A DNA stretch of 64,000 bases from assembly GCA_039808985.1 (NCBI GenBank), contig JBDHUC010000004.1, positions 26,050 to 90,049 on the forward strand. Reading direction: 5' to 3'. This DNA comes from Alphaproteobacteria bacterium. GTDB taxonomy: Bacteria > Pseudomonadota > Alphaproteobacteria > Rickettsiales > SXRF01. Shown piece by piece: positions 39,304 to 43,450 of this stretch. The notes under the pieces are model-generated. The model was not told the DNA's origin and did not search any database. It saw only the letters and a list, made by a program, of their open reading frames with translations. A program made the position numbers and the translations under genes. Within the stretch, counting starts at the first letter, position 1, and every line of letters starts with the position of its first letter.

Positions 39304-39368
39304 GGACTAGGTCCTCGGTACTAGGTTCTAGATTACTAGCCCCTAGAACCCAGCCCCTAGAACCTGAG
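39304..39368. repeat. Heptamer-rich inverted-repeat hairpin (CTAGGTTCTAG / CTAGAACC type), fliN-flbD spacer
   Basis: GGGACTAGGTCCTCGGTACTAGGTTCTAG...CTAGCCCCTAGAACCCAGCCCCTAGAACC. A related fragment lies at 47441-47458. Confidence 0.7.
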
Positions 39369-39376
39369 GAGCAACA

Positions 39377-40714
39377 ATGCGACTACTAATAATCGGCGAA
39401 TTATACGGGCAGCTAGGCACCGCCAGCTCGATAGCCAAATCGCGTGGCGCCAGGGTTGCGCATGTAGCCGACATCGAGGGGGCGATGAATGCATTGCGTG
39501 GTGGCCAGGGTGCTGACCTAATAATGATAGAAGTACGTGAGGATATTGAGAAGTTAGTCAACTTACTAATGCGCGAACGCTTCAATTTAATGGTCATAGC
39601 CTGCGGCTTGGATACAGACAAGGACGCCGCTGTAAAAGCCATAAAATCTGGCGCAAAGGAGTATATTCCCCTTCCCCCTGACGAGGAGCTGATAGCTGCG
39701 GTGCTGGAGGCTATAACCGAGGAAATAAAAACCGTTGTGTTTGCCGATCCTGCCACCATGCGCACATTAGCGCTGGCCGATCAGATTGCGCCAAGCGATG
39801 CCAGCGTGCTTATAACCGGCGAATCAGGAACCGGAAAAGAAGTTATAGCCCGTTATATTCATCGCAAGAGCAAGCGTGCAGGCAACCAGATGATATGCGT
39901 AAACTGCGCAGCTATCCCAGAGGCTTTGCTTGAGGCCGAGCTTTTCGGCCATGAAAAAGGCGCGTTTACTGGCGCAGTTGCCCGGCGTATTGGGAAATTC
40001 GAGGAAGCAGATGGCGGCACGATACTGCTCGATGAGATAAGCGAGATGGACATGCGCCTGCAATCAAAATTGCTGCGGGTATTGCAGGAGCGAGAAGTAG
40101 ACCGTATCGGCGGCAGCAAACCGGTAAAGGTCAATATCCGTGTTCTGGCCACTTCAAATCGTAATATGCCTGAAGAAGTAAAAAAAGGCACATTCCGTGA
40201 GGATTTATATTTCCGCCTGAATGTTATAAGCCTGAACATGCCTCCACTGCGCGAGCGCAAGGAAGATATAAAACCACTGGCAGAGCATTTTATCGACAAA
40301 TATTCCAAGGCCAACGGAATACCAGTCAGAAAACTGACTGACGAAGCTCTTGGCAAGCTCAAAAGCTATAAATGGTCAGGAAATGTACGTGAGTTGGAAA
40401 ACACGATGCATCGCAGTGTGCTGCTTGCCAGCGGTAATGACATCGGGGCTGACGCAATTTACCTGAGCGGCGCACCGGAAGAAGTAAAGGCCGCACCTGT
40501 CGCTACCCAGCAGACACAGGGCACCAATCCGCTGGTTGGCAGGTCCGTGGAAAGTGTAGAGCAGGAGCTTATAATCGACACCCTAAGCTATTGCCTGGGT
40601 AATCGCACCCACGCCGCCAATATACTCGGGATTTCGATCCGCACCCTGCGCAACAAGCTTAAAACCTATAGTGAGCAAGGGCTGAACATCCCTCCTGCCG
40701 TGGGGGAAGAATGA
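39377..40714 (+). CDS. flbD: sigma-54-dependent flagellar transcriptional activator FlbD-like, with a degenerate receiver domain
   Basis: AAA+ sigma-54 interaction domain (GESGTGKE, GAFTGA, ELENT) and a Fis-type HTH. The receiver-like N-terminus lacks the acidic pocket. Confidence 0.7.
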   Translation: MRLLIIGELYGQLGTASSIAKSRGARVAHVADIEGAMNALRGGQGADLIMIEVREDIEKLVNLLMRERFNLMVIACGLDTDKDAAVKAIKSGAKEYIPLPPDEELIAAVLEAITEEIKTVVFADPATMRTLALADQIAPSDASVLITGESGTGKEVIARYIHRKSKRAGNQMICVNCAAIPEALLEAELFGHEKGAFTGAVARRIGKFEEADGGTILLDEISEMDMRLQSKLLRVLQEREVDRIGGSKPVKVNIRVLATSNRNMPEEVKKGTFREDLYFRLNVISLNMPPLRERKEDIKPLAEHFIDKYSKANGIPVRKLTDEALGKLKSYKWSGNVRELENTMHRSVLLASGNDIGADAIYLSGAPEEVKAAPVATQQTQGTNPLVGRSVESVEQELIIDTLSYCLGNRTHAANILGISIRTLRNKLKTYSEQGLNIPPAVGEE

Positions 40715-40722
40715 TTATAGCT

Positions 40723-40800
40723 CAGGATTCGGGATTCAGAATTCAGGAAGTAAGGGAGTTTTCCTTTCCCCTGACCTCTGAATCCCGAATCCTGACCCCT
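40723..40800. repeat. GATTCAG/GAATCCTGA heptamer-rich hairpin without cargo, downstream of flbD
   Basis: CAGGATTCGGGATTCAGAATTCAGG...CCTGACCTCTGAATCCCGAATCCTGACCCCTG. The arms match the inverted repeats at 62106-62138 and 62529-62553. Confidence 0.8.
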
Positions 40801-41216: not shown

Positions 41217-41235
41217 GAGCGAAACCAATGCCTGA
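40885..41235 (+). CDS. GIY-YIG nuclease family protein (COG2827/YhbQ-like)
   Basis: [31 protein letters not shown]...[14 protein letters not shown]...REKLIKKW is the canonical small GIY-YIG pattern. The ATG at 40885 is preferred over the TTG at 40849. The 3' end overlaps the flhA start. Confidence 0.85.
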   Translation: [116 protein letters not shown]

Positions 41236-43369
41236 GGCCACCGCAACAGCAGCGCCAGCGCAGATTGACTGGCTTGCCCGTGTAAATTCCCTATCACGGC
41301 GCAAGGATATTTATTTTGCGGTTGGCATCATAGCGATACTTGTGGTGTTGATACTTCCGCTGCCATCCTTCCTGCTTGATTTTTTCCTTGGAATTTCCAT
41401 CACCCTTTCAGTTATAATCCTTATGACGGTTCTGTTCGTGGAAAAGCCGCTGCATATGAGCTCCTTCCCCACAATATTGCTTATCGTCACCATGTTGAGG
41501 CTATCACTGAACATAGCTTCAACCCGCCTTATCCTCGCGCATGGGCATGAAGGCACGGCAGCAGCCGGACACGTGATACAGGCCTTTGGCGGCTTCGTAA
41601 TGGGCGGCTCTGTAGTAATCGGCGTTATAATTTTTGGCATACTAACCATCATCAATTTTGTGGTAATCACCAAAGGCTCTGGCCGCATTGCCGAAGTATC
41701 GGCGCGCTTTTCATTAGATGCGATGCCGGGCAAGCAGATGGCTATCGACGCTGACCTGTCAGCAGGCCTCATAACCGAGGAAATGGCCAAAATGCGGCGC
41801 AAGGAAATCGAAGATGAAAGTAATTTCTTCGGCTCGATGGACGGTGCAAGTAAGTTTGTGCGCGGCGATGCGATAGCAGGCCTCCTCATCACCTTTATCA
41901 ACTTTATTGCCGGGATTATTATTGGTGTTGCGCAAAAGGGCCTGCCATTTAATGAAGCGCTCAACCATTACACAGTACTGACTGTCGGCGATGGCCTGGT
42001 ATCACAGATACCAGCGCTAATAGTTTCCACTGCCGCCGGTATACTTGTCACCAAATCAGGTGTTGCCGGTTCAGCCGAAAAAGCGGTACTTGGCCAACTG
42101 AGCCGACACCCGGCAGCCCTTGGCATAACCAGCGTGTTCCTGCTTATGATGTCGGTTCTGCCGGGCATTCCTTTTGTGCCGTTTTTCCTGCTTTCCTGCA
42201 TAACCGGGTTTGGCAGCTATTATCTTTTTAATAACCCGCAGGCCATTAATCCGAAAACCGGCGAGGCCTATCCTTCAGGCACAGCTCCCAAACAAATAGA
42301 AGGCCCGGCAAAAGATGGGGAAGCGCCGAAAACCGAAGAACAGCCAGCCGATTTTTTACAGATTGATTCGTTGCGCCTTGAGCTTGGTTACGGCCTTCTG
42401 CCTCTTATAAACTACCAGAAAGGGCACCGCCTTACCGAGCAAATCAAGGCACTTCGCCGCCAGATGGCACGTGAGCTTGGCTTTATTATCCCTTCTGTAC
42501 GCATTCAGGATAATATGCAGTTACCGCCCAATACTTACGTGGTGAAGGTAAAGGAAATAGAAGCGGCGCGTGGCGACATCCGCCCGGAAATGTTGCTGGT
42601 AATGAACCCAAGCGGCGGGAAAATCACTCTGCCCGGCGAAGAAACAACTGAGCCCACCTTTGGCCTGCCAGCCATGTGGATAAACGAAAACCACCGCGAA
42701 GAAGCTTTGTTCCGCAATTTTACAGTGGTCGACCCGCCTACAATTATTACCACCCATCTGACCGAAGTAATTAAAGACAATATGGCCGAGCTGCTTTCCT
42801 ACGCGGAAACGCAGAAGCTGCTCGATGACCTTGGAAAAACCCAGCAGAAGCTCGTTTCCGAAACCATCCCATCGCAGATAAGCGTTGGCGGCGTGCAGCG
42901 CGTGCTGCAAAACCTCCTGCGTGAGCTGGTTTCCATCCGCGACCTGTCCACCATTATCGAGGCTATCGCCGAAGCCTCGCGCACCACCCAGAATATAAGC
43001 CTGATAAGCGAACATGTGCGCAGCCGCCTTGGCCGCCAGATAAGCCACAGCCAGACCACCGATGGCGGGTATATCCCCATAATCGCTATGTCGCCGGGCT
43101 GGGAACAAACCTTTATTGAAGCGCTTAGCGGCAATGCTGATGACCGCACACTGTCAATGGCCCCAAGCCGCATCCAGGAATTCATCAATAATGTACGTGC
43201 AAGCTTTGATAAATTCGCCATGCAGGGAGAAAGCCCGGTACTGCTAACCAGCCCGGTTATCCGCCCTTATGTGCGCTCGATAGTTGAGCGTTTCCGCCCC
43301 AGCACCGTTGTCATGTCGCAGAATGAAATCTATGCCAAGGCGCGGATAAAAACACTGGGGCAATTATGA
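41228..43369 (+). CDS. flhA: flagellar export apparatus protein FlhA
   Basis: FHIPEP family: FPTILLIVTMLRLSLNIASTRLIL, GRIAEVSARFSLDAMPGKQMAIDADL. 713 aa. Confidence 0.95.
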   Translation: MPEATATAAPAQIDWLARVNSLSRRKDIYFAVGIIAILVVLILPLPSFLLDFFLGISITLSVIILMTVLFVEKPLHMSSFPTILLIVTMLRLSLNIASTRLILAHGHEGTAAAGHVIQAFGGFVMGGSVVIGVIIFGILTIINFVVITKGSGRIAEVSARFSLDAMPGKQMAIDADLSAGLITEEMAKMRRKEIEDESNFFGSMDGASKFVRGDAIAGLLITFINFIAGIIIGVAQKGLPFNEALNHYTVLTVGDGLVSQIPALIVSTAAGILVTKSGVAGSAEKAVLGQLSRHPAALGITSVFLLMMSVLPGIPFVPFFLLSCITGFGSYYLFNNPQAINPKTGEAYPSGTAPKQIEGPAKDGEAPKTEEQPADFLQIDSLRLELGYGLLPLINYQKGHRLTEQIKALRRQMARELGFIIPSVRIQDNMQLPPNTYVVKVKEIEAARGDIRPEMLLVMNPSGGKITLPGEETTEPTFGLPAMWINENHREEALFRNFTVVDPPTIITTHLTEVIKDNMAELLSYAETQKLLDDLGKTQQKLVSETIPSQISVGGVQRVLQNLLRELVSIRDLSTIIEAIAEASRTTQNISLISEHVRSRLGRQISHSQTTDGGYIPIIAMSPGWEQTFIEALSGNADDRTLSMAPSRIQEFINNVRASFDKFAMQGESPVLLTSPVIRPYVRSIVERFRPSTVVMSQNEIYAKARIKTLGQL

Positions 43370-43378
43370 ACAAGCTAT

Positions 43379-43450
43379 CAGGATTCAGGATTCAGGATTC
43401 AGGGAATAATTCTTGCTGCCTGACCTCTGAATCCCGACCTCTGAACCCTG
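43379..43450. repeat. GATTCAG/GAATCCTGA heptamer-rich hairpin without cargo, flhA-flhF spacer
   Basis: CAGGATTCAGGATTCAGGATTCAGGG...CCTGACCTCTGAATCCCGACCTCTGAACCCTG. Confidence 0.8.

Follow-up and report, generated by a model that had tools for sequence, protein, structure and literature searches.

To our knowledge, the only described context of genes for four-helix-bundle (4HB) proteins of the S23p kind is the intervening sequence (IVS) of 23S rRNA. In Coxiella burnetii and Leptospira, the IVS carries a PF05635 gene in the loop of a long inverted-repeat stem and sits in an rRNA helix, either 25 or 45 (PMC4990558). The S23p open reading frame (ORF) of Coxiella has tandem GACAGAT heptamers beside it and lies in a stem-loop whose terminal stem is 28 bp long; RNase III cuts mid-stem at the first heptamer, and the heptamer number varies between strains (PMC4990558). 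Here we report on three hairpins in the spacers of a flagellar operon and on two 4HB genes, all in a 64,000-nt stretch of an alphaproteobacterial (Rickettsiales) genome (contig JBDHUC010000004.1, positions 26,050 to 90,049), which is called the window throughout. We think it probable that these spacers hold heptamer-repeat palindromic elements of the selfish insertion type, which reside in transcribed spacers and come either empty or loaded with a 4HB gene. In each element a unit of roughly 7 nt is repeated in two arrays, inverted relative to each other, with a loop between them that is short in the empty form and bears the 4HB gene in the loaded form. As in the IVS, terminal inverted repeats form a long stem, whose loop may or may not hold an S23p ORF. 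Unlike the IVS, the window elements sit between protein-coding genes, in the mRNA operon spacers fabD/fabG and ntrY/ntrX and at flagellar junctions, and empty copies coexist with loaded ones.

Intergenic heptamer repeats are a second described system. Xanthomonas campestris has 186 GGGAATC arrays with 70 convergent pairs; most lie in co-directional gaps, at a distance of about 28 nt past the upstream gene (PMC4692102). Row 15 of the supplementary table of that study is an array between bccP (XCC0517) and XCC0516, the 4HB gene with a crystallised product, whose start the array overlaps (PMC4692102). The Xanthomonas GGGAATC and Nostoc GGGGAYT repeats (PMC4692102), the short tandemly repeated repetitive (STRR) sequences of Calothrix and Anabaena, and the TAACTGA repeats of Beggiatoaceae (PMC4679880) are all tandem 7-nt units, found mostly in co-directional gaps near the end of the upstream gene and not conserved between species. 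The window elements share the tandem 7-nt intergenic units of STRR sequences. In the papers on Xanthomonas, Nostoc and Beggiatoaceae, the repeats are read as G-quadruplex or translational signals, and no link to 4HB genes or to mobility is drawn. The Xanthomonas arrays, with 70-75 in convergent inverted pairs, resemble the hairpins described here, whereas the Beggiatoaceae repeats are almost all direct.

Rickettsia palindromic elements (RPEs) are non-repetitive palindromes of about 100-150 bp that are not built of heptamers, and we know of none that carries a gene. Their in-frame insertion into housekeeping genes has been described, and like the present family they are small palindromes of Rickettsiales-related alphaproteobacteria, found in genes and in spacers, with no known transposase (PMC10969869). 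In the present family, in-frame copies came to light in the polA gene of a relative (L221) and not in the window. Repetitive extragenic palindromic (REP) sequences have a dedicated trans-acting protein, the REP-associated tyrosine transposase (RAYT). [quoted passage not shown] The present family differs from them in that its terminal inverted repeats have no fixed, defined sequence, and neither a transposase nor a RAYT was found in the window; the arm sequence is free to vary between lineages while the 7-nt periodicity is kept.

The three flagellar hairpins are called A, B and C. Hairpin A fills the fliN-flbD spacer (39304-39368), and its arms (39309-39331 and 39343-39365) are made of the degenerate heptamers GGGACTA GGTCCTC GGTACTA GGTTCTA and AGCCCCT AGAACCC AGCCCCT AGAACCT. 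Hairpin B stands directly after the flbD stop codon (40722-40795), with left arm TCAGGATTCGGGATTCAGAATTCAGG, right arm CCTGACCTCTGAATCCCGAATCCTGA (92% complementary) and a 22-nt loop with a GGAAG..CTTTCC clamp. Hairpin C occupies the flhA-flhF spacer (43378-43451) and has a left arm of 3.7 GGATTCA units and a degenerate right arm, CTGAATCCCGACCTCTGAACCCTGA. Folded as plus-strand RNA, A (39300-39376) gave -28.3 kcal/mol (z = -2.7), B (40715-40805) gave -48.6 kcal/mol (z = -8.1) and C (43370-43457) gave -32.6 kcal/mol (z = -3.4); hairpin B is the most stable 90-nt window of the entire 64 kb. In Tandem Repeats Finder (TRF), the arrays at 40722-40748, 43378-43403 and 62107-62133 had a period of 7, those at 39338-39364 and 62526-62555 a period of 14. 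Folding and TRF thus bear out the first-pass annotation of this DNA, which had placed three hairpins of degenerate heptamers in these spacers. It had also put hairpins in every spacer of the operon, which is too strong because five other junctions, of 6-33 nt, are hairpin-free (fliF-fliG 23, fliG-fliH 9, fliH-fliN 6, flhF-flhG 33 and 28 nt between flhG and the next gene). The statement does hold for all spacers longer than about 35 nt, which are the three hairpin spacers, each filled by one imperfect hairpin. An intrinsic terminator (a G+C-rich stem followed by a T-tract) was rejected as a reading, with no terminator-like site at A, B or C, and so was a promoter reading of the three hairpins.

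The GGATTCA-type element is found loaded between fabD and fabG, and hairpins B and C are empty copies of it. The loaded cassette lies on the minus strand at 62107-62555, where inverted arms of 26-32 nt (62107-62138 and 62530-62555) accompany a 4HB ORF of 126 aa (62125-62505). In both empty hairpins the left-hand unit is GGATTCA and the right-hand units are TGAATCC, CGAATCC or TGACCYC; the arms of the fab-locus 4HB are made of the same units. With the two-unit probe GGATTCAGGATTCAGG at up to 3 mismatches, 14 matches were found against 0.43 expected from shuffles, and every one of them falls in B, in C or in the two arms of the fab-locus 4HB. B and C are 74% identical across 73 nt. The inner clamp ..GGATTCAGGGAAG / CTTCCCTGAATCC.. 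recurs in empty and loaded copies alike, and so do two variant units, CGAATCC and TGACCYC. The earlier claim that two of the hairpins use the units of the cassette at 62106-62553 was therefore correct, B and C being the two. The further proposal of a cassette with miniature derivatives stood insofar as B, C and the 4HB arms form one element family, and failed for hairpin A, which is an empty element of another unit type. Its unit, GGKNCTA / AGAACCY, is more degenerate than and distinct from that of B and C, and no relatives of it were found in any locus compared.

A coincidental, low-complexity similarity, in which the hairpins and the 4HB flanks would be unrelated simple repeats, is hardly credible. 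The intergenic DNA of bacteria is in general enriched in heptamer repeats (PMC4692102), and two-unit matches in other genomes are uninformative: for AGGATTCRGGATTCRG, the 16-mer used in our scan, about 1100 chance matches are expected in 596 Gb, so only arrays of at least three units were used. The coincidence is contradicted, however, by the shuffle controls, the shared non-repeat inner ends, the variant units, the statistics of 4HB flanks in other genomes and the covariation of arm and protein given below, all of which place the similarity suspected in the first-pass annotation beyond composition. Since unit, clamp and variant units are shared, and since arm and protein covary, we treat the elements as one family.

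The fab-locus protein matched PF05635 (23S_rRNA_IVP) with E = 1.9e-41 and 141 bits against a curated cut-off of 33.8, and TIGR02436 with 135.6 bits against a cut-off of 24. Its nearest solved structure is Xanthomonas XCC0516 (PDB 2gsc, E = 6e-27). It also matched PF22296 (bAvd), while the Avd model NF033474 gave 35.1 bits, which is below its cut-off of 80. Proteins of the 4HB type are Avd-like nucleic-acid-binding pentamers without a catalytic motif. No nuclease, transposase or recombinase domain appeared among the profile matches of the 4HB protein, only a weak similarity to Avd of diversity-generating retroelements (DGRs). The DGR Avd has a homologous four-helix-bundle fold, but no reverse transcriptase (RT) and no template or variable repeat was found near the 4HB genes, and no RT in the window. 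The cassette had been called autonomous, a word that we drop, as its protein has none of these enzymatic domains and none is encoded in the window. In GGATTCA-type cassettes (the window and L085), the arm itself supplies the end of the 4HB ORF, ..P-E-S-stop, through its TGA. The fabD stop codon TAG adjoins the second arm in the window, and the TAG of the upstream gene likewise abuts an arm in two relatives (L135 and L136).

A second loaded cassette (8506-8944, minus strand) lies between ntrY and ntrX. Its 4HB paralogue (ORF 8482-8898; PF05635 E = 9.5e-41, 138.8 bits) is 53% identical to the fab-locus protein, and its arms use a TAGTGRT unit instead, ATTAGTGGTAGGAAAGTAGTGATAAG at 8919-8944 and CTTATCACTAACCACTAAT at 8506-8524. 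No empty copies of the TAGTGRT unit were found in the window.

Loaded and empty hairpins are indeed linked, and far more generally than first proposed. Homologues of the fab-locus 4HB that are 74-82% identical were found at fabD|fabG (L136, orthologous), carA|carB (L135) and glycosyltransferase|epimerase (L131), all with GGATTCA arms and with the same clamp, ..GGATTCAGGGAAG ... CTTCCCTGAATCC... A further homologue (L219), which is 72% identical and shares the glycosyltransferase|epimerase junction with L131, has the degenerate arms GGGATCAGAGGGCAG / CCCTGATCTCTGAACCCTGACCTCTG. A frameshifted 4HB pseudogene stands between GGATTCA arms in a metagenome-assembled genome (MAG) of Acidobacteriota (L085), so this arm type is not confined to one phylum. 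Cassette 4HB genes are co-directional with the upstream gene at 39 of 44 loci and with both neighbours at 30 of 44, which implies that they are expressed by read-through.

More distant 4HB genes were collected with a profile-based scan of metagenome contigs, which gave 80 further genes that are 48-58% identical, 74 of them with usable flanks. Strong period-7 or period-8 arrays were present upstream in 38 and downstream in 45 of these 74 loci, compared to 12 of 213 control windows drawn from the same contigs. The downstream array was the reverse complement of the upstream array in 35 of 42 loci and a direct copy in 2 of 42. Among 67 independent loci from IMG/VR, period-7 arrays were found upstream in 35 and downstream in 24 (controls 9/238). 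Taken together, strong inverted arrays of 7-nt (in some cases 8-nt) units flank about half of the 141 distant 4HB genes but occur in only about 5% of control windows; in these 4HB-seeded loci the cargo is 4HB by construction, so they are silent on other cargo. The arrangement of repeat hairpin plus gene spans the 4HB family and many bacterial phyla. One metagenomic locus provides a further stable-RNA operon context, with a 4HB cassette with TTTAGTA/ACTAAAT arms between two tRNA genes (L169, about 1250-1900).

Arm units vary widely among loci (GGCAGTG, GGTCAGG, GCTAGTC, GTTTCCA, GGTGAAC, the 8-mer AAGGATTC and others), and they vary with the protein. An arm unit was common, at one mismatch or less, to 27 of the 30 most similar protein pairs, compared to 4.6% across all pairs. 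Shared ancestry of the host genomes could account for part of this covariation. This is countered by paralogues in one genome that differ in their arms: in the window, the fab and ntrY/ntrX cassettes do so, and in L221 one 4HB gene has GGATTCA arms and a second, 1.2 kb away, has GGAATGC arms. Seven loci (L146, L147, L149, L152, L161, L190 and L218) have an 8-nt arm unit, AAGGATTC or AAGGGTTC. Their proteins form a clade with 66-80% mutual identity, and the unit is of the GGATTCA type with one base added throughout both arms. The presence of the extra base in all units of both arms implies concerted evolution of the arrays.

Empty copies also occur near loaded ones in other genomes. L221, whose 4HB is 76% identical to that of the fab locus, has four empty GGATTCA hairpins within 16 kb of its loaded copy, which share the clamp and the CGAATCC variant unit of B and C. 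Three of these four are situated in frame within polA (11331-11412, 12824-12908 and 13089-13176), adding about 28 residues each. The polA ORF is intact at 977 codons, and the elements are read as ..KDSGFRIQDSG..NPESRILNPES..; one right-arm unit has CGA where TGA would stand, and one of the frames stays open as a result. Two of the three copies correspond to insertions or gaps relative to the Klenow fragment of E. coli, and the alignment begins just downstream of the third (aa 308-337). In 110 kb flanking the metagenomic cassettes, eight extra arrays of the local cassette's own unit were found, where about zero were expected.

Orthologous flagellar loci were obtained through FlbD homologues, which are annotated as Rickettsiales or Alphaproteobacteria MAGs: L125 (94% identical), L128 (86%) and L130 (84%). 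In L125, the closest relative, 10 nt separate fliN from flbD and 3 nt separate flbD from flhA, and hairpins A and B are absent. The fliN-flbD spacer is 10-22 nt and without a hairpin in all three. The flhA-flhF spacer of L125 has a strong hairpin (-52.6 kcal/mol) of another heptamer, GGATGAC / GTCATCY. A CGGATTA/GTCATCT hairpin stands at the flbD-flhA junction of L128 and L130, and L130 has an AGATGAC-type hairpin at flhA-flhF, where the genes of L128 overlap and no hairpin is present. The Coxiella IVS heptamer GACAGAT is a rotation of this AGATGAC unit of the L125, L128 and L130 hairpins. This comparison shows that presence and unit differ among close relatives and that two junctions are repeatedly occupied. 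With multiple copies that are present or absent between related genomes, the elements share a characteristic of MITEs; a parent with the same ends that encodes a transposase was not found, and 4HB is the only cargo. A similar turnover is known from the P6b stem of the Nostoc tRNA-Leu intron, where complementary 7-nt repeats of two unit classes replace each other at one site and length changes by whole units; that stem is within a group I intron, and no associated protein gene is reported (PMC4476775).

The elements thus behave as insertions and not as ancestral operon sequence, given that they are present, absent or replaced by another unit type among close relatives, and given their co-directional junctions and the in-frame copies in polA. 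An alternative is that the hairpins are host-selected RNA structures that arise in place, as arrays expanded by replication slippage and kept as REP-like stems that would serve mRNA stabilisation, processing or translational coupling, with the 4HB gene a secondary passenger that enters the loops or passes from one to another. The position of the hairpins is conserved beyond their sequence, as the flbD-flhA and flhA-flhF junctions are occupied by differing units across the window, L125, L128 and L130. Their 3' feet abut or overlap Shine-Dalgarno sequences: GAGGAG of flbD directly follows the 3' arm of hairpin A, and the stem base of hairpin C overlaps GAGG of flhF. The strain-variable heptamer copy number of Coxiella, the change from a 7- to an 8-nt unit on both arms in one protein clade, and the lack of a nearby 4HB at most GGATTCA arrays elsewhere (among the matches listed) also suit this alternative. 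It does not explain why A and B are wholly missing in the closest relative, why the same arms and gene occur together at unrelated junctions, or why two arm types coexist in one genome and track the paralogue, and selection for intercistronic stems could not produce in-frame copies in polA. The transcribed strand is also not the better folder. We therefore regard host-selected structures as unlikely, although they deserve to be kept in mind.

Several observations weigh against our preferred reading of the hairpins as selfish insertions. No decayed 4HB ORF was found in the empty copies by six-frame hmmsearch with filters off, which leaves their origin from loaded copies conjectural. Among the matches listed, only 4 of 120 GGATTCA-array loci of other genomes have a 4HB within the 8 kb or less around the match, and many of these arrays are purely direct. 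Among the ORFs of the 64-kb window, none resembles a transposase, reverse transcriptase, RAYT or integrase. A comparison by eye of the flanks of 10 copies showed ..ATA or ..TTA frequently on the 5' side but no consistent target-site duplication. The recurrence of hairpins of other units at two junctions could mean repeated replacement, and it fits selection for a stem equally. Hairpins A, B and C all fold better on the non-transcribed strand, which speaks against selection at the RNA level; across 77 cassettes, the stem energy favored sense in 40 and antisense in 34 (p = 0.47), although these duplex energies from 110-nt flanks are noisy. The role of RNase III, set out below, is argued purely by analogy.

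Loops of intermediate length bear on another explanation. In other phyla, loops of 135-300 nt with unrelated, non-coding content were found between GGATTCA arms. When loops of 135-474 nt were searched by the same hmmsearch, only L085 and L028 scored, and no 4HB remnant was found in those of 135-300 nt. Such loops speak for an explanation in which the arms would be recombination sites of a cassette-exchange system resembling integron attC sites, with a recombinase that is encoded elsewhere in the genome and recognizes the folded heptamer arms, the empty copies being vacant sites and 4HB the commonest cassette. The promoterless, co-directional position of the cassettes inside operons and the form of the arms, which are structured imperfect palindromes with conserved inner ends, are in line with this. 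However, no integrase is nearby, the cassettes form no arrays, and the loops seen without 4HB are non-coding, while covariation of arm and 4HB is unexpected for a generic site. A cassette-exchange system is accordingly improbable. The neighbors of the empty copies in other phyla were 6 co-directional, 3 divergent and 1 convergent, with 6 copies inside an ORF; the ORF calls were crude and include spurious overlaps in high-GC contigs.

Because it is co-transcribed with the operon, each hairpin would form a long imperfect RNA stem. The flagellar hairpins are probably RNase III substrates, by analogy with the Coxiella IVS stem and with Correia elements, both of which are cut by RNase III. As entry points for this enzyme, the stems would split the flagellar transcript into fliFGHN, flbD, flhA and flhFG, and they could affect how the ribosome-binding sites next to their 3' feet work. 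The elements may spread through mobilization by host enzymes, or the cargo may be transferred by recombination across the repeated arms. The sole protein consistently linked to the elements is 4HB itself. A bolder version, which we offer as speculation with a real but limited chance of being right, is that PF05635 4HB proteins are the dedicated trans-acting component of mobile hairpin cassettes found across the bacterial domain, that each lineage recognizes its own arms, and that the empty copies are non-autonomous derivatives.

If true, this reading of 4HB cassettes would unite the origin of the ORF-bearing 23S IVS, the excess of intergenic heptamers (STRR sequences, Xanthomonas GGGAATC) and in-frame insertions of the RPE kind. 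The 4HB/S23p family comprises thousands of unexplained small genes, with at least 7986 homologues scored here. Separate reports describe intergenic heptamer repeats from cyanobacteria, from Xanthomonas and from Beggiatoaceae but leave them unexplained, and they are here linked to 4HB genes. Testable hypotheses follow for the protein, which would bind its own repeat arms, and for the repeats, which would be a selfish element family, and RNase III-dependent segmentation of polycistronic mRNAs such as that of the flagellar operon is predicted. S23p ORFs in IVSs, intergenic heptamer repeats and RPE-like insertions are each known singly, and it is plausible that joining all three is new. In the literature outside subscription journals, we found nothing that joins 4HB/S23p genes generally with heptamer inverted repeats, only the Coxiella note on direct heptamers.

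The flagellar operon of the window has the alphaproteobacterial layout: fliF (35539-37197), fliG (37221-38255), fliH (38265-39002), fliN (39009-39299), flbD, which encodes a sigma-54 activator (39377-40714), flhA (41228-43369), flhF (43458-44486) and the MinD-like flhG (44520-45284). The remainder of the 64 kb consists of housekeeping genes (ilvD, pyrG, tpiA, trpEGDC and fabD-fabG-acpP-fabF) and an rvh-like cluster of virB3, virB4 and three virB6 genes. At the gathering threshold, Rfam matched a tRNA-His alone in the window, with no match at the hairpins and no rRNA. Short contigs of the window's own organism are present in public data (L001-L004, including NCBI GCA_964410315.1).

Besides hairpin B, the flbD-flhA gap contains a separate GIY-YIG cassette (40843-41216), which is absent in L125, L128 and L130. 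Its gene (about 40888-41235; PF01541, E = 1e-12) is associated with inverted repeats of 28 nt at 40850-40877 and 41179-41206, both of which form hairpins of their own. An exact direct repeat of 34 bp (40809-40842 = 41217-41250) stands on either side of the insert and comprises the flhA ribosome-binding site and first eight codons, so a decoy flhA start stands ahead of the cassette. Solo hairpins of the GIY-YIG arm, TGTCACCCCGCNGAATRGCGGGGTCTGG, occur at 6884-6915 and 56952-56983, and thus a second, unrelated family has the same loaded and empty pattern.

Other small repeats are present in the window. A dispersed repeat of 106 nt has copies that are 100% identical at 47337-47442, at 59331-59382 plus 59445-59497, and at 926-1031 of L001. 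In the copy downstream of fabF, the repeat is interrupted by 62 nt of inserted sequence (59383-59444) made up of two CAAATCC..GGATTTG hairpins, an example of nested small elements. The short hairpin CAAATCC-N6-GGATTTG was found at 240, 34442, 59386, 59428 and 61082, at gene ends and in some cases with a T-run after it, and may be a genome-specific terminator-like repeat. Palindromes of the form GTCATCCTG...CAGGATGAC occupy at least six intergenic sites, often in clusters (6802-7021, 24698-24788, 26452-26506, 34574-34628, 47458-47491 and 56926-57152). Right after the fabF stop codon, a direct array of 4.7 AATTACG-like heptamers (59501-59533) has no inverted partner, its best duplex being -11.7 kcal/mol. 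Finally, a pair of repeats of about 85-110 nt, 89% identical and each with an internal inverted repeat, lies at 48178-48287 and 63622-63705.

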